From: a virus
Virus record (IMG/VR): IMGVR_UViG_3300042387_002391
DNA length: 64,000 nucleotides
Strand: one strand, 5' to 3'
Shown here: piece after piece, positions 800 through 57,268 of the stretch
How the letters are laid out: each line of letters opens with the position of its first letter
How positions within the stretch are numbered: the stretch's first letter is position 1
Notes under the pieces: model-generated
Seen by the model: only the letters and a program-made list of their open reading frames with translations
What the model was told of the DNA's origin: nothing
The model's database searches: none
Made by a program: the position numbers and the translations under genes

Positions 800-2662
800 A
801 TGAATAATATGAATTTAGATATAGAACTAGTAAAGCAACTAAGAACAAAGCATCCAAAACATTACTGCAAAATTATTAAAAACCATTATCAAGAAATTTA
901 TAAAGCAATTGAAGATTTTGCACAGAATGTGTATTGCGATTACCAAATGAATTTTCCACAAAAAATATATCACTGGATTCACCAGCTTCACAAAATTCCA
1001 CTTTGTCCGATTAAGAATGTACTTTTAAAATTTTATAATCATAAGTTTGAATACAGAAAGTTTAGCGAAAGAGGATTGTTCACAGAAGAGTTTGCAAAAA
1101 ATAGAATGAAGGGAAGAACAAAATTTCCTAATGCCAAAGAAAGAATGGGTGATATTGATGCAAATTTTCGATACGAAGAAAATTATAAGGAACAAGCTTT
1201 TAAGCAAGTCAGCAAAATGTTTGACGAAATACAAAACATTGGGGGAGTTTGTACCGCAATTAAAACCAAAAAGAATGCTAAACTGTATTCTTTTGTTAAA
1301 AATTTATATCCAACAGCAGAAACGTTTTCAGAGTGTTTGTTTTTGCTTTTAAACAACATGTCTGAACCACCTTTGTGTCCATTTTCCAAGCTTCCTTTGC
1401 CTTTTGTAAATTTTAAGCAAGGTTATAAAGACACTCACCCTGCTGCTGTTTGCGATTTAAAGAGACACAAAAGGCAAGAAAAGCTTCAAAATCTCGAAAT
1501 TTTGTCTAAAGAAGAAACAATTGTACAACTTCAAATGATGATAGACGAGCTCAGAAGAAACAATATTTCGATCAATAATTTGAAGCAGTCTGCGGTTAAA
1601 AGATGTCCTAGTTTAGCAATATCGATCGAACAGCACACAAAAACATATACAACTCTTACCAAAAAATGGTCAGAAAGAGCTTATTTGCTTTTGCATGAAG
1701 GCGAATCGAGAGATTTCTCGAAATGCAGATTTTCTTCTTTTGATGAAGGCTACTATGACACATTCGTTAACCCTAACAGTTCGATTGGAGAAGAAAATCT
1801 TGCGAGTTGGATCGAAAGTCTGAGTGTCAGCAAAATAAGGAGGCACGAAAGGCTTTTAAACGGGATGGAGGCAGACATCTATGCCGAGAATGTTAACTTA
1901 GCGATAGAATATCACGGCGAATATTATCATAATTTTGAATTTAGAGGCACAGACTATCACAAGCGAAAAGCAGATGCTGCTTTAACCAAAAATATAAATT
2001 TGCTTCAAATTTTTGAAAGCGAATGGTATAATAAGCAAGAAATAGTAAAGTCTATTATTAAATCTGAACTGGGAATATTCTCTTTCAAAGTTGATGCAGA
2101 ATCGTGCTTAGTTAAGCAACTTGACTCTAAAACAAAAAATGAATTTTTAGTAAAAAACCATATTCAGGGAATCGACCGTTCGATTATTGCTTTTGGCCTT
2201 TATTTCGATGACGAATTAGTCTCTTGTATGACATTCGGAAGAGGATGTAAACAAAAGGACAATCGAATTGAATTAGTTAAATTTTGCAATAAACTAGACA
2301 CTGCAGTAATTGGAGGAGCAAGTAAACTGATAAATGCATTCGCAAAGCAGTTTAAGCCTGCAAAAATTTTTACATTTTCAGACAGAAGATTTGCAAATAG
2401 TAGTAATTTTTACGAAGATTTGGGTTTTAAAAAATGTAACCAAACAATACCGAATTATTTTTACTTCAAATCTAGCATGCCTCAATACATGAAGTTAATC
2501 CACCATTGCAATTTCGCGAAACATTTGCTGCCTCGTAAATTAAAACAGTATGACGCAAATCAAACAGAGTATGAAAATATGAAGCAGAACGGTTACTTTA
2601 AAATTTATGATGCAGGAAGCTTCAGATATGAACTAACTTTTAAACAACCTACCAATGTTTAG
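800..2662 (+). mobile_element. Free-standing Hef-like homing endonuclease gene (PD-(D/E)xK/DUF559-type nuclease plus C-terminal domain)
   Basis: EADIY..NLAIEYHGEYYH, LLQIFESEW, IELVKFC..VIGGASKL, KIYDAG motifs; inserted antisense between sheath and tube genes. Confidence 0.8.
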
Positions 2663-2677
2663 TTGGTAGGTTGTTTT
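2642..2677. terminator. Bidirectional intrinsic terminator between convergent endonuclease and sheath genes
   Basis: aaacaacctaccaa..ttggtaggttgttt inverted repeat followed by a T-rich tract. Confidence 0.7.
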
Positions 2678-2690
2678 CCTTTTTGACTTT

Positions 2691-4793
2691 TTAAATAATT
2701 TCTTGGAAGTTTTGGCTCGTGCGGGTTGCAATAAAGTCAATCAAAATAAATTCCGAACTCCGTACAGCCTTCAAATAAATGCTAACCAAAAGTTCGTTAT
2801 TATCGATGACATCAGGTGTGTTAATTCTTTCGTCGCAGACAATTTCAAAGTCAAAAAGTCCTTCTGTGTTCTTTGCAAACTCAAAAATTGGAGTAATAAC
2901 ACTCTTCAGACGAGTCCTTGTAAATTCGGTATTTGGTTCAAACACAAAATACTTCAAGGTTCTTTGAGTTGCTCTTTCGAGAGTTAGGAACAATCTGCGA
3001 ACATTGATGCGATCAAAAGCAGTTGGTTTTGTTTGAAGGGTTTTTTGACCCATTACAGCAAATCCGTCTCCACTAAAGAACACAACAGGGTTTACAGAAA
3101 TTTCATAAAGTCTGTCGCGTTGTTTTTGATTTGGATTGAAAGCAATATCGAGAGCATTGAAAGTGCCTCTGTTGAGACCTGCTGGAGCAAACCATGGTTG
3201 AGAGACCGCATCATTGCGAGCAAATGTTGCAGCAGCATAACCTGAAAACGGTACCCACATTCTGCGACCTGTAAAGATATCAGAAACTTTGACCCAGTTA
3301 CCATACATTGCAGCATAGTTGCTTTCAGAGCTAGCAATCTCTTTGAGGGGATTGTAAATGTCTTGGGTAAATGTTTTTCCTTCAGAATCAATTACTTTTG
3401 AGTCTCTGCCCAATACAAAAATAGGACGAAGAGGATCGATAATTGCCATGCAATCTTTGCGAGTATTTTGAGCAAAGTTGACAAGTGTGTCAGAAACTGC
3501 GCGGAAGTCATCAGTCAAGGCAGAAACATCGCTGACGAATGTTTCATCATTGAAGGAGCTAATTCCGAGCGTATTTGTCATTGCAAATACTGTAGAAAGA
3601 CCGGCATCAACAATAACATCAACAATAGTGTTTTCAATGCTTTCGAGAGGACGAAGAGCTTTGTCAAGCTTTCCTGGAACGCTTCCGATAACTTTCGAAA
3701 CGTCTTGTGAGCGGCTGTCGGGAGTAAAGACGCCAAGAGGGAAGAGAGCTTTGGCTCCGTCAGTAACAGTAACGCGAGAGGTCGGAAGAGTGGAGTTAAC
3801 AGCCCATTGATAGCTCTTAGAGATTGCTGGGTTGATATACATCTTAATTGTCGGAGAGGCATCGTTGATATTATCTCCAATGAATGCGTTTGAAAGAATG
3901 CCACCAGTTGGGCTTACTTGGCGTCTGTTATAATCAAATGAGCCGAGGTACTTTTCAGTTGTTGCGAGGGTTAACATTGTTGCGTCTGAAGTAGAACGAC
4001 GAACTTTATAAACACCGAGGGAAAGATGATCTTGATATTCATCAGTTTCGAAACCGATGAAGCCAACCTTTTCGAGAGATTCAGAAATGCTATACAAGCC
4101 TCTGTTGCTGTCTGCAAGAGTTGCTGAAAGAGCAAAGTCGATGCGATCTGTCGTAATCGAACCAAATGTATCAGAAGCAGTAAGAGTCGTTAGAGCAAGA
4201 ACCGATTCGAAGTTTGGTGAGCTGGTGGAAACCGCAAGGTTGTCTGCAAAGCCAACATAGTAGCCTTCTGCATATTCATTGACAACTGTTTGGAGGTCAT
4301 TAAGAATGAAGAAGCCGGCGTTAATTTCGACATCACCTGTAAGTTTAGCAGAAAGAACGGAAGAACCGGTGCCAACCCAATCAAAGTTGCCTTCAACGAG
4401 CTTTGTGTATTGCTCTTGGCTCATGCTTGCCGCAATTGGCGCACCAATCTCCCATTCGCCAGTTGCTGAAGTCATTGGATAGAATAGAGCTCCAAAAGAA
4501 TTGGAATAAGCAGAACCAGTGTTTGCTCCGTATGGTAAACGAACAGTGTTCAGAACGCCAGGAGAATTGAGAACTTCTTTACAGCTGTAGTAAAAGTACA
4601 TTTCAGCTGGTGTCGAAGGAATGCCGTAAATTGATTCAAATTCGCTTGTTGAAGTAATCAACAAAGGCTCGCTGACAGGACCTTGGGGAGCAAAGCCAGG
4701 AACAACGATTGTCGTGCCTGCTTGAATTTGTGTACGAAGTGAAAGATCTTTTTCAGTAATCTGAACGCCGGGTGAGTTAATGATTCTTGCCAT
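2691..4793 (-). CDS. gp18: Contractile tail sheath protein (gp18)
   Basis: SPGVQITEKDLS N-terminus; PWFAPAGLNRG, DRINVRRLF and FEPN motifs. Confidence 0.95.
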   Translation of the reverse strand: MARIINSPGVQITEKDLSLRTQIQAGTTIVVPGFAPQGPVSEPLLITSTSEFESIYGIPSTPAEMYFYYSCKEVLNSPGVLNTVRLPYGANTGSAYSNSFGALFYPMTSATGEWEIGAPIAASMSQEQYTKLVEGNFDWVGTGSSVLSAKLTGDVEINAGFFILNDLQTVVNEYAEGYYVGFADNLAVSTSSPNFESVLALTTLTASDTFGSITTDRIDFALSATLADSNRGLYSISESLEKVGFIGFETDEYQDHLSLGVYKVRRSTSDATMLTLATTEKYLGSFDYNRRQVSPTGGILSNAFIGDNINDASPTIKMYINPAISKSYQWAVNSTLPTSRVTVTDGAKALFPLGVFTPDSRSQDVSKVIGSVPGKLDKALRPLESIENTIVDVIVDAGLSTVFAMTNTLGISSFNDETFVSDVSALTDDFRAVSDTLVNFAQNTRKDCMAIIDPLRPIFVLGRDSKVIDSEGKTFTQDIYNPLKEIASSESNYAAMYGNWVKVSDIFTGRRMWVPFSGYAAATFARNDAVSQPWFAPAGLNRGTFNALDIAFNPNQKQRDRLYEISVNPVVFFSGDGFAVMGQKTLQTKPTAFDRINVRRLFLTLERATQRTLKYFVFEPNTEFTRTRLKSVITPIFEFAKNTEGLFDFEIVCDERINTPDVIDNNELLVSIYLKAVRSSEFILIDFIATRTSQNFQEII

Positions 4794-43714: not shown

Positions 43715-43742
43715 ATTATAGGTTAAGGATTTTATTTTTCAA
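43715..43742 (-). promoter_or_regulatory. Sigma70-type promoter TTGAAA-N16-TATAAT
   Basis: Upstream of gp55. Confidence 0.75.
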
Positions 43743-45174
43743 CTAATTGATTCAAAATTAATGGAATTTTTTCTGATTCATATAGTCTTTTTCTTTCTTC
43801 AAAGTGTTTGTAACCATATGTTAAGCAAGTATCAGCAATATCAAAAATTGTTGCCATTTCTTTTGTGTGGTGTAAGCGCAAGCTACGACCAATTGACTGA
43901 ATGATTTTAATACGAGCTTTTCCAATAGAAGCAAAAATAATATTATGTAAATTTTTAATTGAAATACCGGTAGAAAAGATTTTAGAAATTGCTATACAAA
44001 CAACTCCACTCGTTGTTTCCATAATTTGCTTAATTTTCTCTCGCTCTTCAACTTCTACAGAACCTTGCACAAAAAATACTTGTCTTTCTGTTTTATCTTT
44101 TAAGTATTCAAGAAGATGTTCGCCATGCACAATTCTATCGACAAGAACAAGGGTATTGGTTTCGAGATTATTAACGAGTTTTGTAATAACGGAATTTCTA
44201 TACTCATTTGTGTGAAGCCAAGTAGTTTCTTCTTCATAACCAGCTGTCGGATTTGACATTGAAGGAGTTGTAAACTTTGGAATATTTTTGTATTTTAGTT
44301 CCAAACCAACAACACGAACTTTTGAAATAAATTGGTCTTGTCGGAGATCGATAGATTTTTTCCTATAAAGAATTGATCCAAATATTCTATTGATTGACCA
44401 AATGTCATATTTATTTTCTGGCAAAGAACCTGTGAAACCAAACTTGTGCTTGCATTTAAGATCTTTTATAAGTTTTGATATCTTCTCTGCCGAAAAATAT
44501 TTGTGGCATTCATCCGCTATAACCACATCAAAATTAGCTAAAACGCTCTGGTCTTGCTTCTTTGAAAGAAGAATTTGATTGTTAGCTACAACAATTTTTG
44601 TATTTTGAAATTCGTGACTTCCGGTCCACTTTGAAACCAAACTCGGATCAATACCATAATCTAAAAAATCTTGAAAAGTTTGTTGCACAAGTTGAATGTC
44701 TGGAACGAGAACGAGAATATTGTAATCTTTATTCTTAAGAATTGTGCTTGCCATTAAGGCAATGACAAGTGTCTTTCCAGCAGATGTCGGAAGAACAATC
44801 AACCCTCGTCCTTTTTGCAAGGCAATTGTTGCTGATTCAATCTGATAATCTCTCGGAGTTAGATTTAGTTCAATTGGAACATCTCCAAGCGAATCAATTT
44901 TTGTCGCATCAAGAAACGACTGAGAAGCTTTTAACTTTAAAGAAGGAAATTTAAATTTAATCTCAGAACAAATTTCTTCAAAAAAAGGAGCATCAAAGTT
45001 ACCTTTATTTGTTATTGCATACTTTCTTACTGGCATGTTTCTACCAGTCCTTCTCTTAACAAATAACAGAGCCTTGTCTTCAACGGAAAAATGTTCTCTG
45101 ATTTGACTCAAATACTCAGAAACAATCTGAGGCTTTCTAGCAACTGAATCATAATCAAATAAAACTTCTTTCAT
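43732..45174 (-). CDS. uvsW: UvsW SF2 helicase
   Basis: PRDYQ, PTSAGKT, DECH, GFTGS and QSIGRSLR motifs. Confidence 0.93.
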   Translation of the reverse strand: MKEVLFDYDSVARKPQIVSEYLSQIREHFSVEDKALLFVKRRTGRNMPVRKYAITNKGNFDAPFFEEICSEIKFKFPSLKLKASQSFLDATKIDSLGDVPIELNLTPRDYQIESATIALQKGRGLIVLPTSAGKTLVIALMASTILKNKDYNILVLVPDIQLVQQTFQDFLDYGIDPSLVSKWTGSHEFQNTKIVVANNQILLSKKQDQSVLANFDVVIADECHKYFSAEKISKLIKDLKCKHKFGFTGSLPENKYDIWSINRIFGSILYRKKSIDLRQDQFISKVRVVGLELKYKNIPKFTTPSMSNPTAGYEEETTWLHTNEYRNSVITKLVNNLETNTLVLVDRIVHGEHLLEYLKDKTERQVFFVQGSVEVEEREKIKQIMETTSGVVCIAISKIFSTGISIKNLHNIIFASIGKARIKIIQSIGRSLRLHHTKEMATIFDIADTCLTYGYKHFEERKRLYESEKIPLILNQLVEK

Positions 45175-46378
45175 CTTTAATTTTTTCTAAAATTTGATCT
45201 GCCGTAAAATTTTCAAGAACCATCTCTTGTAAGCTTGCAACAGTTATATTTGATTTAATTTTAAAGCCTTCTAAAGATTTGTCAAACGACGGGAAGAAAC
45301 TTTTTAAGAATAATTGCAAAATTTCTTGATTAACATAATCAATATTAATTTTCAAATCGAATCTACCTGGTCTCAAAAGCGCTGAATCGAGCTTGTCAAT
45401 GTGATTTGTTGTTGCAATTAAGATTCTTCCATCAACTCCTGCAAAACCATCAAGAGCATTTAAAATTTCCGACAAGCCTGCCATGCCAAGTTCGTTCTTC
45501 AGTGTATTTTTAGTTGCTTTGACAATATTTTCTTCAAATTCATCATCTTTTCTTGAATGAGTGAATGTCTGACAATCAATATCCTCAATAACGACAACGC
45601 ATTTTTCAGTTAGCTTTTCGAATGCGTCTTCGATCTTTAAAAAAGCGCTAGTTGGAATATAATAAATTGGATAACTGAAGTGAGAAGCAATTGCTTTAAT
45701 ATAACTAGTTTTTCCAGTTCCTGGAGGTCCGTAAAGCATAATACCAAGTTGATGTGGAATTCCTTTTTCGAGATACCACTTCTCTTCTTTGATAAACGAA
45801 CTTATTCTATCAACAACCAGATCCTTTTTCTGTTGTTCTATAAAAATTGAATCAAGGCTCCTTTTGCTAACATCTTTAATCCAACTCCAATCTCCGCTGT
45901 ATTTGAACATCTTTATCTTGTTCTGCAAGTCATGTTGCTTTTCAATTTCTTCAAGCAATCTTTCAAAAACTTTCTTTGATCTTCCAAACTTTGTAATAAC
46001 AACAGTTTCTTTATCTCTGTCAGTCTGATTAGCTGGCTCCTTATCAAGAAGCACCATCAAAGGAGTCTTTTCAAACCAAACAATGTGCCATCCGTAACCA
46101 ACCGAAAAGACGCTGCCTTCAGATCCCCAGCGGCCATTTGAAATCTTCCACTGTCGAAAGTTTTTGTTCCTATAATTTGTTTCAATCCATTTTAAAAAGT
46201 TATAAAAGCTGTCATGCTGGCTCGTTATAGTCACGGACGTAGTTAGTTCTCTTTTCAAGAAATTAACAAACTTCCCGGGAACATCTTTTAACCAAAATGA
46301 AATAATGCCAGCACTTCCTAAACCCAAACCGGTCTGAAGAATGTGATTGTTAGCAATTATTTCAGTCAAGAAACTCAT
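45155..46378 (-). CDS. BCS1-like AAA+ ATPase with hydrophobic N-terminus
   Basis: WYLEKGIPH, GPPGTGKTS, IEDID, LNALDG and TTNH..LDSALLRPGRFD motifs. Confidence 0.85.
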   Translation of the reverse strand: MSFLTEIIANNHILQTGLGLGSAGIISFWLKDVPGKFVNFLKRELTTSVTITSQHDSFYNFLKWIETNYRNKNFRQWKISNGRWGSEGSVFSVGYGWHIVWFEKTPLMVLLDKEPANQTDRDKETVVITKFGRSKKVFERLLEEIEKQHDLQNKIKMFKYSGDWSWIKDVSKRSLDSIFIEQQKKDLVVDRISSFIKEEKWYLEKGIPHQLGIMLYGPPGTGKTSYIKAIASHFSYPIYYIPTSAFLKIEDAFEKLTEKCVVVIEDIDCQTFTHSRKDDEFEENIVKATKNTLKNELGMAGLSEILNALDGFAGVDGRILIATTNHIDKLDSALLRPGRFDLKINIDYVNQEILQLFLKSFFPSFDKSLEGFKIKSNITVASLQEMVLENFTADQILEKIKDERSFI

Positions 46379-46788
46379 GTTGTTTCAAGAATTATAATCT
46401 TTGATAAATTATTCATACCAAATTGTGCATCTCGCAAATTCATTTCTACCTTTGAGAGATACTCAACAAGAAATTCATTGTTAGCAATTTCTTCATCAAT
46501 TCTCACAATGGCTTCATGAGAAGCAATTGAATCGGAAATCGTTTTTGCATTCAGACCAACAGGAGATTCATGCTCAATCTTTTGACGGAGTTTCTTGCAA
46601 GCGGATTCCTTGAGTTTTTTATAGCGTCCAATCTCTTGTTTATGGAACATTAGACGGCCAACCCAATAGTGCCTAACAGAAGCCAGGGTCATCTGAGCGT
46701 CTTTCAAATTGAGTTCATCAAACTTTAGAAACTCAGCAATTTTTTCGTGATATTCGAGAAATAGGTCAGCAGAAGATTTTTCAGACAT
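46375..46788 (-). CDS. uvsY: Recombination mediator UvsY-like protein
   Basis: 137-aa helical protein upstream of uvsW; size and synteny match T4 uvsY. Confidence 0.65.
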   Translation of the reverse strand: MSEKSSADLFLEYHEKIAEFLKFDELNLKDAQMTLASVRHYWVGRLMFHKQEIGRYKKLKESACKKLRQKIEHESPVGLNAKTISDSIASHEAIVRIDEEIANNEFLVEYLSKVEMNLRDAQFGMNNLSKIIILETT

Positions 46789-47419
46789 AAAAATAGGCTA
46801 GATTGAATTGTTGATTGGAATTTTCGTCAACATAATAATTTTTAAAGCGTGGAAATATACCTTCGATCATTTTTACAAAAAAATTTAATTTTCTTTGTTC
46901 GCTTTTCAAAATGTGGAAGTAAAGAATATCAGGAAACCTTTCGTTTCTTTCGTGAAGGCTTGTTACAATAGCGTCTTTAATGCTTTGTATAACTGAGTAA
47001 GCGTAATTTCCGAGTTTATTTGTCGTTTTTATTTCGTCTTGAGAATCTTTAAAGTTTATGGTAATAATTGGGTGTTCGGTTTCATCAACAGCTTTTTGTA
47101 AGCCAGCTAGAATACGTCTATCTTCAAAATTCGTAAAAAGAGTGCTCAACAAATCTTTATATACATGCTGCTTATCATAAAAGCTTACGCTTAACTCAAA
47201 AGACATACCATTAGTTGCAATTACTTCATACAAATCAGTATTTGCGTTCGAATCCACTTTTTCAAAAGACTCGTACAGCGGATACAAACTTTGCTTACAA
47301 ATAATAAAAACATCCCAAAAGCGCTCCCAGTTAAAATTATCTACATTTTCAATCAGCAAATAATCATAGTCAGGAGCCTTTGTAGACTCATAAACAAGTT
47401 CTAAAATTCTATCACTCAT
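46781..47419 (-). CDS. Hypothetical protein
   Basis: 212-aa ORF. Confidence 0.6.
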   Translation of the reverse strand: MSDRILELVYESTKAPDYDYLLIENVDNFNWERFWDVFIICKQSLYPLYESFEKVDSNANTDLYEVIATNGMSFELSVSFYDKQHVYKDLLSTLFTNFEDRRILAGLQKAVDETEHPIITINFKDSQDEIKTTNKLGNYAYSVIQSIKDAIVTSLHERNERFPDILYFHILKSEQRKLNFFVKMIEGIFPRFKNYYVDENSNQQFNLAYFYV

Positions 47420-47770
47420 CTAGTGAAGTTTAGAAACATTCAAAATGCGATCAACAACTTTATAAATACTTGTAGCAGCTCTCTTCAAATGAGCTTCAGA
47501 AAGTATGCTAAAACTGTCAACTTCAGTCCTTTCTAAAACATAAGGAGCAACTGCAAGAATAAGATTATTTCTCATTAAAGGATTATTTACAGAAGAAGGA
47601 GTTTGTCTGCAAGAATTATTTGTTGAAGCATTCGAAAGCTCGTTTTTTAAACTTTTATTTTCTGATTCAAGAAGAGTATTTTCAGTCTCAAGAGCATCAA
47701 TATGTCCTTCAAGAGATTTAATTGTTCCGATTAGTTTATTAATGCATTCTGTAATTTCTGATGTTTCCAT
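47420..47770 (-). CDS. Hypothetical coiled-coil protein (start METSEI)
   Basis: TTGAAA-N16-TATTAT-N6-ATG at 47777-47804. Confidence 0.6.
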   Translation of the reverse strand: METSEITECINKLIGTIKSLEGHIDALETENTLLESENKSLKNELSNASTNNSCRQTPSSVNNPLMRNNLILAVAPYVLERTEVDSFSILSEAHLKRAATSIYKVVDRILNVSKLH

Positions 47771-47894
47771 AAAGAAATAATAAAACAAAAATTAAGAATT
47801 TCAACAAAAATAACTTCAAACACAAACTTCAAAATTTTACATATATAAATTATATAACTTATAAGAAGGAATTATTAATAATCTCCTCAATTCA

Positions 47895-48181
47895 GATCGA
47901 AGGAGGGAGGTCCCCCATTGCTGGAAAACCTCCCTTCTTAAAAATTGTACTCCTTCAAACGAGTCTCAGTCGGGTTCGCAAACTCCAGATAGTCTTTCTC
48001 TATCAAGCTCCCTCGGTTGTCCTGTAAGAGCATTTTGTTTGAGTGGTCCTAGCTTTCGCTAGACAACGGTCACGCAATAGCGCACTTCGAGATGTGTTTT
48101 TAATTTATGAATCGCTGATCCTTGTTGTTTATCTCACTACTGAGACCCGCTATAACGCTTTGGCTAGGGCTAACAGACGAT
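47895..48181 (-). ncRNA. Putative ~290-nt structured non-coding RNA (unassigned)
   Basis: GC-rich intergenic island; long-range stem CGGGTCTCAGT/ACTGAGACTCG; GNRA-capped hairpins; G-U pairs form only on the minus strand; TTGACT-N16-GACGTT upstream. Confidence 0.65.
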
Positions 48182-48235
48182 GAAAGAAACGTCGAACAGT
48201 TATTGTAAAAGTCAACCAATTTGATAAATACTTTC

Positions 48236-48469
48236 ATGGAATTTCAAAAAATAGTCGAAGAGCTTCTACAGGAAGACATGACAGCTGGAGGAGAAGGTTC
48301 TTCTTTTGGTCCGGGAGTTGTGAATACTGCTGATCAATTTAGTAGTGACTCTTATGCTCCAGGAGATGCTCGCACCCCTTCGAGTATTTTTGGAGGAGCT
48401 GTTCTTACAAGAGGTGGTCTGAAAAAAACCAAAAAGAAAAAATTAAAAAAGAAATCCCGTAAGAAGTAA
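48236..48469 (+). CDS. Small protein with basic tail and MEFQKIVEELL leader
   Basis: GATAAATA-N5-ATG; YAPGDAR motif; poly-Lys tail. Confidence 0.65.
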   Translation: MEFQKIVEELLQEDMTAGGEGSSFGPGVVNTADQFSSDSYAPGDARTPSSIFGGAVLTRGGLKKTKKKKLKKKSRKK

Positions 48470-48470
48470 T

Positions 48471-48833
48471 ATGGAATTTCAAAAAATAGTCGAAGAGCTG
48501 TTAGATGAAAATGTTGCTCTGGGTGGGGATGACAAAAAGAAGGGAATTATTGCAGCAAATTTTACAACAAAGACAGGTCTCTATGCTTCTGCACAAACCG
48601 GAACTTCTGCTGGTGTGCTTGCTCCTCAATTTCAAACTGCTTCTAGCGGAGGTTCGAAGAGCTCTGGTGAACAATCTAATATCGGAGCGGAAGAGGATAC
48701 ATCAGCAACAAGAAAGTCAAATTATCGAAAGAATTCTTCCAAAGGCTGTAGAGGTAGCACAAAAAATAATTCAAAGGGAAGTAAAGGAACGGTTATCAAA
48801 TATAAGCCGATAGATTTTGGAGGTAAATTGTAA
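48471..48833 (+). CDS. Low-complexity protein with duplicated MEFQKIVEELL leader
   Basis: First 29 nt identical to 48236-48264. Confidence 0.6.
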   Translation: MEFQKIVEELLDENVALGGDDKKKGIIAANFTTKTGLYASAQTGTSAGVLAPQFQTASSGGSKSSGEQSNIGAEEDTSATRKSNYRKNSSKGCRGSTKNNSKGSKGTVIKYKPIDFGGKL

Positions 48834-49285
48834 TGGAAGCAGATTTAGGACATTGGGTGCTTTCTGAGGGTCTAGAATATGATCCGGAAGCTTTTGGTAT
48901 GATCTACTTGATTACAAACAAAGTAACAAACAAAAAGTACATCGGAAAGAAGCAATGTGTTTCCAAAGTCAAAAGACCACCATTAAAAGGAAAGACAAGA
49001 AAACGCATAACAATGAAAGAAAGCGATTGGAGGACCTATACTGGTTCATCAAACGAGCTGAATGCTGACATTGCAAAGTATGGTAAAGAAAACTTTTCTT
49101 TTGAAATCTTAGAATGGGGTGGATCAAAATTTGAATTGGGCTATAAAGAGATCAAGAGACAACTACAGGAAGATGCATTGTTGAGCGAGCAATTCTACAA
49201 CGGAATTTTAAATTGTCGTCTATCAAAACCCAAGTATTACGTACCTTATGAGCAATCAAAAAACAAAAACCTTCCCAAAAGCTAG
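48833..49285 (+). CDS. denA: GIY-YIG endonuclease II-like protein
   Basis: GMIYLITN..KKYIGKK, ESDWRTYTGSS and FYNG motifs. Confidence 0.8.
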   Translation: MEADLGHWVLSEGLEYDPEAFGMIYLITNKVTNKKYIGKKQCVSKVKRPPLKGKTRKRITMKESDWRTYTGSSNELNADIAKYGKENFSFEILEWGGSKFELGYKEIKRQLQEDALLSEQFYNGILNCRLSKPKYYVPYEQSKNKNLPKS

Positions 49286-49673
49286 AGTTTGTGTTATTGA
49301 TATCTATCCCTCATTTGAAGAAGGTCTAAAAAAGGCTATAAAATTTTCTCAAGAGCACAACATAATGCTCAATAGTGCGGATGGCAGAAAACTCATCGTT
49401 AGTTATTGCATTAAAGCAATAGAAAATGATTATACTCAAACTTCCAGTCCTTTTCCAAAAGTTCTCTGCATGGCTTCAGAACCAATTAATAAAAAGATTC
49501 AAACGTTCATTGATAACTATTTTAAGAGCATTATGAAGTATGTTCCAATGCCCTATTGTGGAGCTATAAAGCTAGAATCTCCAGATTTAGAAAGTGCTGC
49601 TGAAAATAGTTTGAAGCAACAAAAGACTCAAGGAAAGTTTCAAAAGCTGAGCACGAGACTGAAGCTAAAATAA
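49248..49673 (+). CDS. Hypothetical protein
   Basis: 141-aa ORF overlapping the denA 3' end. Confidence 0.55.
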   Translation: MSNQKTKTFPKARVCVIDIYPSFEEGLKKAIKFSQEHNIMLNSADGRKLIVSYCIKAIENDYTQTSSPFPKVLCMASEPINKKIQTFIDNYFKSIMKYVPMPYCGAIKLESPDLESAAENSLKQQKTQGKFQKLSTRLKLK

Positions 49674-50441: not shown

Positions 50442-51401
50442 TTAATTTGTACACGATACATTAGATTCTAATATTTTTGCGATATTCTTCTTATCTTTAT
50501 AATGAATAACGAGTAACTTTATATTCATCTTTTCACAATATTCTTTTTTTATCTGATCTCTTTTTTGTAAAATTTTAAAATATTTTTTCCCTCCGAAAAA
50601 ACTGACAGGCTTAAAATGCTGCAGTCCATGAAATTCGATTATTAAATTAAATTTAGGAACATATATGTCGAACCAGTGGACACTTTGGTCTATTATAACT
50701 TTGTGTTGATGTATATGATCAATACCTCTTTCTTTGAGCCACACTACGATCGAGGACTCTCCTTGCGAAAATCCGCAAGCCTGACATCCGTTTCCGCCAA
50801 TATGATCAGTCATTCGTTGTTTGAACACACCGTGTATTTTACATATTATATTGACGTGAGACTTATAACCAGTATACTCTACTTGGCTGTAATCATACAA
50901 ATCTCCATGCTTTTTTCTCGCTCTTGTGATAAAACTTTCTAACTTAGATGAGGAAGTTTTAAATAAACGTTTTTGCTTATTGCATTTGCTGCAACAAATT
51001 CCTAATATAAGAGACGAAGGAACCTGTGTGAATTTTATATTGCTTTTTTTGCAAAACAACTCTAATTTTGTATGCATGCTTTTGTAAACAGCGTTACTAA
51101 AATCTAAATTATTTACGAACTCCGAAGATGTTCTTTTTTCTAAAATATTTAAAAATTTGTCTATATCGTGACGTTTTTTTGACAACAGTTGTTTTTCAAA
51201 ACCGCATGTCGGGCAACCTTGTCTTAAGCGTGCGTGATCAGCAGGTCTTTGTTGGAACTCTCCGTGAACAGGACAAATGATAGTTACTTTAGTTCCGTCG
51301 TTGACGTAATTTACTTTTGAATAGTCATAAAAGTTATTATGTACTTCGTTAAATCTTTTGACTATTTGTTCTTGTGTTAATTTTTTTGGCATATCTTCCA
51401 T
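50442..51401 (-). mobile_element. Free-standing homing endonuclease gene (Zn repeats + DUF559/Vsr-like nuclease)
   Basis: YDYS...IICP.HG.F.Q...H..GC..C repeats; FDIYVPKFNLIIEFHGLQHF. Confidence 0.85.
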
Positions 51402-52297: not shown

Positions 52298-52771
52298 TTA
52301 TTTTGTGTAAATTGAGGAATTTGCTTCGTGTTCAAAAGCTTCTACCGATTCTACCCAGCAACGGTCTCCATAACTTTCTTTAATCATTTCAGAAGCTACG
52401 TTGAAGCAAAATTCTGCAACCTTTTCGATTCCTACTCCGTCCATGATTTTAAGATTGCAAGCTCTGCGTTCGTGAAGCTGTTTAAAAAGATCCAAGCAGG
52501 GATCAGATTTATCCAGAACGAGCGTATGGTCGAACTGCTCATTGAGGACAGATTTGAGCTTCTTAAGAGAACCATAATCGACACACCAATTACGTTCATC
52601 AAGCTCTTTGCAACCAAATGTAAATTTGGCCTTGAGTTGGTACCCATGAACACGAAAACAAAAATTGCCTTCTCTCACGAGACCTGCTGTTGCTAGTTGA
52701 GGATCAGCCTTCCATTGACGAAATGCGCAAGATCCCAATTCAATAACTTTTGTTGAAGTAAATTTTCCCAT
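52298..52771 (-). CDS. queD: 6-carboxytetrahydropterin synthase
   Basis: AFRQWKA, C..HGY, FDHT and EHEANS motifs. Confidence 0.85.
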   Translation of the reverse strand: MGKFTSTKVIELGSCAFRQWKADPQLATAGLVREGNFCFRVHGYQLKAKFTFGCKELDERNWCVDYGSLKKLKSVLNEQFDHTLVLDKSDPCLDLFKQLHERRACNLKIMDGVGIEKVAEFCFNVASEMIKESYGDRCWVESVEAFEHEANSSIYTK

Positions 52772-57050: not shown

Positions 57051-57089
57051 CAAAAAAAAAGAAGGCTTTTCTTTTTAGGAAAAGCCTTC
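57051..57089 (-). terminator. Intrinsic terminator
   Basis: GAAGGCTTTTC..GAAAAGCCTTC followed by a long poly-T on the minus strand. Confidence 0.88.
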
Positions 57090-57231: not shown

Positions 57232-57268
57232 AAGTTAATTTAGAGTATTTTTATTGTTAGTCAACAAC

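Follow-up and report, generated by a model that had tools for sequence, protein, structure and literature searches.

Phages are known to encode stable non-coding RNAs from their own promoters, such as the pRNA of phi29 and the stable RNAs C and D of T4, the latter two located in the T4 tRNA cluster. Among plasmids, the RNA II of ColE1 is a primer precursor of several hundred nucleotides, the folding of which could decide the formation of a hybrid downstream. Orphan, highly structured RNAs found by covariation, some of them phage-borne, include GOLLD (RF01998), ROOL (RF03087), and OLE, which measure 580–800 nt and form RNA-only multimers (bioRxiv 10.1101/2024.12.08.627333). In T4, the replication origins oriF (i.e., ori(uvsY)) and oriG span approximately 100 bp, with a MotA-dependent middle promoter and, immediately behind it, an unwinding element (Kreuzer and Brister 2010, PMC3016281). 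For oriF, a middle-mode promoter with the AT-rich unwinding element next to it is all that is required, and R-loop formation at this origin is independent of sequence; the R-loop origins of T4 need no RNA fold (PMC3016281). OriE carries an early-mode promoter and direct repeats, and the helicase UvsW unwinds the origin R-loops (PMC3016281).

In the current study, we analyzed a stretch of 64,000 nt of viral DNA (IMG/VR virus record IMGVR_UViG_3300042387_002391; hereafter the window), in which a gap of 465 nt without genes separates two divergent genes, starting at 47770 on the minus strand and at 48236 on the plus strand. Our results confirm that positions 47881–48181 of the minus strand are a real gene for an intricately folded non-coding RNA of ~300 nt that belongs to no catalogued family (Table 1). 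Like oriF, oriG, and oriE, the locus has a predicted promoter-driven transcript beside a uvsY-like gene and running toward it, with AT-rich DNA downstream; its promoter looks early-type, which together with direct repeats nearby recalls oriE. Unlike in oriF and oriG, the promoter is separated from the AT-rich DNA by a conserved RNA of 300 nt with a predicted pseudoknot. The promoters of oriF and oriG have a MotA box at −30 and no −35 element. The early-type look of the promoter at this locus comes from its conserved −35 GTTGAC. OriE carries a cluster of evenly spaced direct repeats; only two, 65–70 nt apart, are present in this locus. The likeness to ColE1 RNA II concerns size and the idea of folding, with no sequence or Rfam match. 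The RNA resembles GOLLD, ROOL, and OLE in being an orphan structured RNA but is shorter, and it has no similarity to them in Rfam. The phi29 pRNA, which is in Rfam, does not match it either, and the T4 RNAs C and D are not known to be similar to it. We propose, with a probability of roughly one half, that the gene encodes an early, stand-alone RNA of ~300–320 nt of uncultured, mostly freshwater T4-like phages, the function of which would lie in its shape, with protein binding as the probable mode of action.

Table 1. Features of the locus and their positions in the window.
Feature	Position	Strand	Remarks
Conserved RNA body	47881–48181	−	~301 nt; ~317 nt with all of repeat B
5′ domain	48111–48181	−	junction of P2, P2a, P2b, and the hairpin CUCA-GUAG-UGAG, closed by P1
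Helix P1	starts at +1	−	AUCGUCUG with CAGCGAU; 4 of 7 pairs changed on both sides
A-rich single-stranded linker	48092–48110	−	UUCAUAAAUUAAAAACACA; nearly invariant (alignments A5 and A7)
Central pseudoknotted domain	47965–48091	−	enclosed by the long-range CUCG/UGAG helix
P3 hairpin	48071–48084	−	3 pairs with double-sided change
Pseudoknot GTTGTC/GACAAC	48062–48067 with 48016–48021	−	99.6% paired; 2 pairs changed on both sides
Hairpin UAGC-GAAA-GCUA	48050–48061	−	3 pairs with double-sided change
P5	48037–48041 with 47979–47983	−	2 pairs with double-sided change
P6	48026–48031 with 48007–48012	−	3 pairs with double-sided change
P7, variable hairpin	47988–48004	−	5 pairs with double-sided change
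Direct repeat A	47933–47954	−	AGGAGUACAAUUUUUAAGAAGG; just 5′ of the 3′ hairpin
3′ hairpin	47905–47934	−	GGGAGGUUUUCC-AGCAAU-GGGGGACCUCCC; 98% paired
Invariant C-rich tail	47894–47905	−	CUCCUUCGAUCU; directly after the 3′ hairpin
Direct repeat B	47865–47886	−	GGAGAUUAUUAAUAAUUCCUUC; past the 3′ hairpin
Candidate promoter of the RNA	48188–48215	−	−35 TTGACT 48210–48215, N16, −10 GACGTT 48188–48193
AT-rich spacer	47771–47864	−	promoter-like sites for the next gene
Promoter-like site TTAATA-N18-TATAAT	47849–47878	−	in the spacer after the RNA
Promoter-like site TTGAAA-N16-TATTAT	47777–47804	−	ends 6 nt before the ATG at 47770
Divergent neighbour gene	48236–48469	+	small protein, start MEFQKIVEELL
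Next gene downstream of the RNA	47420–47770	−	116 aa, coiled-coil-like; ATG at 47770
212-aa gene	46781–47419	−	inserted together with the 116-aa gene, after the RNA and ahead of the UvsY-like gene
UvsY-like gene	46375–46788	−	137 aa; named from ESM Atlas look-alikes
BCS1-like AAA ATPase gene	45155–46378	−	between the UvsY-like and UvsW-like genes
UvsW-like helicase gene	43732–45174	−	

The folding energy of the single sequence was only modestly beyond that of shuffled sequences (z = −1.78 for the minus and −1.08 for the plus strand), so the case for the RNA rests on the comparison between copies. Pattern scans and a profile scan for the 137-aa protein, run on IMG/VR and on JGI/ENA metagenome contigs, yielded 40 distinct full-length copies and three truncated ones. 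A model of 14 helices was written by hand from RNAalifold output and inspection, and the covariance model R1 built from it scored the 40 homologues at 234–373 bits. Realigned to R1 (alignment A7), the copies formed standard pairs in 93.9% of the cells, compared with 36–47% when the partners were slid. Double-sided changes occurred in 31 of the 71 pairs versus 15.1 ± 1.9 in shuffles (0/500), and in 157 cells versus 37.7. Alignment A5, produced by mafft without fitting to the model, agreed with these values (30 pairs and 153 cells). The covariation test among homologues that the preliminary description had suggested thus gave a strong result, with 10 of the 14 helices, the pseudoknot included, showing covariation. 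The model also contains many conserved G-U pairs, which are C-A mismatches on the opposite strand, indicating that the fold belongs to the minus-strand transcript.

The RNA falls into three domains: a 5′ junction, a central part with the pseudoknot, and the hairpin at the 3′ end. Within the 5′ junction, P2 covaries, P2a has double-sided changes in two of its three pairs, and the CUCA-GUAG-UGAG hairpin (P2c) is 100% paired, with all four pairs changed on both sides. In the central domain, the hairpins CTAGC-GAAA-GCTAG, GATAG/CTATC (P7), and GCTCTT/GGGAGC (P6) that had been seen in the single sequence are all present and covary, and the GUGCGC hairpin is also among the helices with double-sided change. 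The possible pseudoknot pointed out earlier was likewise supported; in the consensus, RRYAAC of the P6 loop pairs with GUUGYY. Neither the long-range CUCG/YGAG helix nor an outer AGAU/AUCU helix showed double-sided change. The 11-bp closing stem of the preliminary description (GGGTCTCAGT/ACTGAGACTC) did not survive the comparison. It exists in the window and is 84% paired in the homologues, but it does not covary, 499 of 500 shuffles do as well, and the bases of its 5′ half are part of local helices for which covariation was seen.

The 3′ domain agrees with the long stem without a U tract described before, as does the AT-rich tract that follows it: the RNA lies in a GC island (0.45–0.475 over 47900–48199, with ~0.33 in the genome and surroundings), and the GC content falls to 0.22 over 47700–47899, right after the island. 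The 3′ arm of the hairpin, GGGGRACCUCCCUCC, is invariant and the changes in the 5′ arm preserve the pairing (G-U to G-C or A-U), which is why the hairpin shows no double-sided change. In a genome apparently without Shine-Dalgarno sites, the perfect GGAGG/CCUCC hairpin stands out. A leader peptide in the loop was considered and rejected, as the AUG (MGDLPPSI) occurs in only about half of the copies. Around this hairpin, the direct repeats A and B are placed at fixed distances, repeat B starting 30–31 nt after the start of GGGGRACCU in every copy. Both repeats begin with CGGA(R), and the following 9–14 nt differ between clades and are alike within each genome, with an A-versus-B score of 5.7 in the own genome and 4.0 across genomes (0/2000 permutations). 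These co-evolving direct repeats flanking the 3′ hairpin are new in this analysis. No complementary partner shared by repeats A and B was found. The repeats have the look of sites bound by a co-evolving protein, whether on RNA or DNA, and if the RNA has a protein-binding site specific to the clade, they would be its best candidates. A G tract able to pair with the invariant C-rich tail follows repeat B in about two thirds of the relatives; it is missing from the window, where GAGGAG of repeat B can pair with the tail.

No known RNA family accounts for the element. Searched with the 4227 models of Rfam 15, which include RNase P, tmRNA, 6S, group I and II introns, riboswitches, and ribozymes as well as GOLLD, ROOL, OLE, HEARO, and pRNA, the whole window gave no match at the gathering score. 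At E ≤ 10, the sole match in the window was HIV_FE, by chance (19 bits, cut-off 45), and ten diverse homologues had no sense-strand match overlapping the element. The antisense matches were also due to chance (IS128 at the 3′ end of homologue L075, 21.7 bits against a cut-off of 80, and HOTAIR_2 in L083, 17.6 against 60). ARAGORN found no tRNA or tmRNA, and together with Rfam this agrees with the earlier failure to match tRNA, tmRNA, RNase P, or intron cores. There was no conserved reading frame, the longest stop-free stretch being 21–27 codons in every frame in some copy, and no 3-nt periodicity (60/68/63 variable columns by phase). The literature that we searched contained no description of the RNA. 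The proposal of a new class of phage non-coding RNA is thus borne out by the covariation, the conserved promoter, and the lack of both an Rfam match and a conserved frame.

The promoter TTGACT-N16-GACGTT suggested from the single sequence is present and conserved among the copies. GTTGAC stands at a constant distance from helix P1 in 34 of 39 copies, and the −10 element, 16 nt further on, has the form NANNNT, with the A kept at position 2 and the T at position 6. The predicted +1 is the A at 48181, six nt past the −10 and also the first base of P1; in the alignment of the copies the A of AUCG likewise lies six nt beyond the −10. Promoters of the class GTTGACW-N16-NANNNT occur seven times in the window versus 1.95 expected (0/100 shuffles). 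Judged by its sequence, the promoter would be of the sigma-70 type and early-looking, and presumably active. Metatranscriptome contigs from two studies fall inside the RNA alone, within 47974–48168: one contig of 164 nt with two mismatches to the window (X1), and three contigs whose overhangs match the copy of a relative (X2). These four short contigs from RNA libraries are a weak hint of transcription, since carry-over of DNA is possible. Two further RNA runs (X3 and X4) were discarded, as their contigs lay on flanking low-complexity parts with <90% identity.

All IMG/VR relatives of the 137-aa protein carry the RNA element, mostly in freshwater samples and with a few labelled marine. Carriers are restricted to phages with a UvsY at least 62% identical. 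Where the homologue of the 137-aa protein is at most 50% identical, neither such a gap nor an R1 match was found, and R1 gave no match on 44 loci with distant UvsY relatives (31–50% identity), T4, and chance loci. The RNA therefore marks one clade. The mean identity to the window was 0.80 for the RNA, 0.72 for the UvsY-like coding sequence, and 0.58 for the divergent gene, and in so narrow a family part of the sequence conservation reflects limited divergence. Neither blastn with the element, megablast with 16 kb, nor tblastn with the UvsY-like protein found a match in 50,697 phage records, and no cultured phage is known to carry the RNA. A pattern scan of 185,579 GTDB genomes gave nine matches, all assigned to chance by nhmmer, leaving a host origin of the RNA unsupported. 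A scan for the 3′ hairpin pattern revealed no further members of the family; one candidate (L093) proved to be a chance match inside a gene.

The position of the RNA is constant among the copies, between a small divergent gene and the gene of the 137-aa protein, whose orientation it shares in all copies. The small MEFQKIVEE... gene is its upstream, opposite-strand neighbour in nearly all of them. On the other side, the RNA heads a uvsY/uvsW/47 gene cluster, in which the 137-aa gene is followed by those of a BCS1-like ATPase, a UvsW-type SF2 helicase, and a gp47-like phosphoesterase. The RNA model ends 42–96 nt before the UvsY-like gene in most relatives and 1.1 kb before it in the window, where the 116-aa and 212-aa genes are inserted, consistent with the location shortly upstream of uvsY given in the preliminary description. 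Several contigs have one to three inserted genes on either side, leaving the position of the RNA undisturbed, and whichever gene comes next starts 42–100 nt past the element. The strand switch noted at this locus exists, but only as a local one arising from a short block of plus-strand genes (48236–49673, 1.4 kb), and the cumulative GC skew has no turn at the element. We call the 137-aa protein UvsY-like from a language-model look-alike search alone, in which ESM Atlas returned look-alike clusters with 53–55% of members carrying PF11056 (UvsY). Pfam and PDB profiles gave no UvsY match for this protein, and it is not a demonstrable homologue of T4 UvsY (hhalign probability 0.2%).

Downstream of the RNA, the sequence of the AT-rich spacer varies between relatives apart from repeat B, and in the copies compared the gene after the RNA has its own −10 box 6–8 nt before the ATG. 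No intrinsic (U-tract) terminator was found after the RNA. A Shine-Dalgarno-like motif precedes just 4 of the 62 phage genes in the window. A box like (TA)GATAA(A/G)TA was observed 4–7 nt before the ATG of ~14 genes of the window, and others have a −10 or late-type box at 5–8 nt (gene starts with such upstream boxes are, for example, 665, 4793, 10033, 11669, 48236, and 54026). From these start sites, the phage messages seem to be mostly leaderless or near-leaderless. In the relatives, the palindrome CTTTAAAG (or a near variant) also occurs one to three times in the spacer, the copies being ~10–13 bp apart (e.g., L072 2380–2440, L059 2400–2450, and L040 2570–2599). A conserved (A/G)GT(A/G)GAYTTTTTT box comes next, and ~16 nt after it stands the −10 of the UvsY-like gene. 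Palindromes and box may represent a site for a regulator and a promoter of the middle type; this candidate promoter sits 3′ of the RNA, directly before the UvsY-like gene. Neither CTTTAAAG nor GTAGATTTTTT showed enrichment in the window.

With a promoter of its own and probably a near-leaderless message, the next gene speaks against a leader and for an RNA that is transcribed as a unit by itself, and the RNA is probably a separate early transcript working through its fold. We hypothesize that the host RNA polymerase would transcribe it early in infection and that it would fold into a compact particle acting by shape, and not as a messenger leader or a mere primer. Its likeliest partners would be one or more proteins of the phage replication and recombination machinery, or of the host. 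Against a stand-alone role, the fixed linkage to the uvsY cluster and the shared orientation would also fit a cis-acting one. Large non-coding RNAs that are well folded and clearly covary are seldom found, and T4-type phages have hardly any known examples. With its precise promoter, tested pseudoknot, ~40 natural variants, and fixed place beside recombination genes, this RNA is a ready experimental subject. Should its partner be a host factor, the RNA would represent a new kind of early takeover RNA; a link to the start of replication would give it bearing on what governs R-loop formation and origin choice, an open question in T4 (PMC3016281).

The linkage just mentioned is what a cis-acting leader of an early polycistronic message of recombination genes would predict. 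Such a leader could be a riboswitch, a processive antiterminator, or a structure protecting the 5′ end, and would control how stable the message is, or its read-through or translation. The RNA is always directly upstream of the UvsY-like or the inserted genes and in their orientation, no intrinsic terminator separates it from them, and its size and pseudoknotted core resemble those of large riboswitch aptamers. Without Shine-Dalgarno use and a U-tract terminator, though, the usual riboswitch platform is absent, no conserved expression platform was seen, and no known riboswitch matches. Besides, the gene immediately downstream differs between copies, each having its own promoter placed for a near-leaderless message, and we regard a leader as unlikely.

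Equally doubtful is a role for the RNA as precursor of the primer at a replication origin, where a fold like that of ColE1 RNA II, the repeats, and a downstream G tract would control a persistent RNA-DNA hybrid in the AT-rich spacer. Such an origin would be syntenic with T4 oriF, annotated at the 5′ end of uvsY, and would stand at the head of the uvsY/uvsW-helicase/gp47 cluster. The early-looking promoter, the two direct repeats, and the TTAA-centred palindromes of the relatives are in favour of this view, as is the G tract in the RNA sense that precedes AT-rich DNA in ~65% of the relatives. Yet the R-loop origins of T4 need no specific RNA sequence or fold (PMC3016281), and sequence-independent R-loops at oriF leave a conserved pseudoknotted fold of 300 nt unexplained. 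At this locus, 300 nt with 45–47% GC separate the promoter from the AT-rich tract (starting at ~47864), which itself carries the promoter of the next gene. The G tract is missing from the window and about one third of the copies, more distant relatives with the same gene order are without the element, and there is no global turn of the GC skew.

A more speculative, and in our view improbable, extension would join the folded RNA, the 3′ hairpin resembling a Shine-Dalgarno/anti-Shine-Dalgarno pair, and the co-evolving repeats into a platform for a clade-specific phage protein linking early transcription with the initiation of replication or recombination where the uvsY/uvsW/47 cluster begins. 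If true, a T4-type phage would possess a structured equivalent of ColE1 RNA II.

Small ribozymes are often carried by phages, and the pseudoknotted core of the RNA contains invariant unpaired stretches of 13–20 nt, as might be expected of a new self-cleaving or otherwise catalytic RNA. The core has no resemblance to the ribozymes of Rfam and no obvious substrate or processing site, which makes a catalytic role very improbable. A decaying remnant or chance structure without function, which would suit the marginal single-sequence fold (z = −1.78) and the absence from more distant relatives, is hardly credible given compensatory changes in 31 pairs, conservation above that of the flanking genes, and a conserved promoter.

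Some further observations concern the surroundings of the locus. The site immediately 3′ of the RNA is an insertion hot spot in several contigs, among them that of the closest relative (L001, IMGVR_UViG_3300042332_001946), the RNA of which is 96% identical to that of the window and in which an additional ~1.6 kb separates the RNA from the 116-aa gene (1330–3000). Two more distant relatives (L088 and L090) have a gene of ~480 aa directly after the UvsY-like gene. The same promoter class as that of the RNA, GTTGACW-N16-NANNNT, is found at 57237–57265 on the minus strand, before another ORF-free stretch; R1 has a weak and probably meaningless match (13 bits) at 57055–57089. Next to the small divergent gene, an adjacent paralogue (48471–48833, plus strand) shares the N-terminus MEFQKIVEELL, after which the two sequences diverge, and one of the two proteins has a lysine-rich C-terminal tail. 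Their shared start resembles the sequence that targets the internal proteins of T4 to the capsid and undergoes cleavage after (L/I)xE. Genes for a SegE-type GIY-YIG endonuclease (48833–49285, plus strand) and an HNH/DUF723 endonuclease (50442–51401, minus strand) are located less than 3 kb from the RNA. Further along, a gene for a QueD-like 6-pyruvoyl-tetrahydropterin synthase (52298–52771, minus strand) may belong to a deazaguanine DNA-modification pathway.
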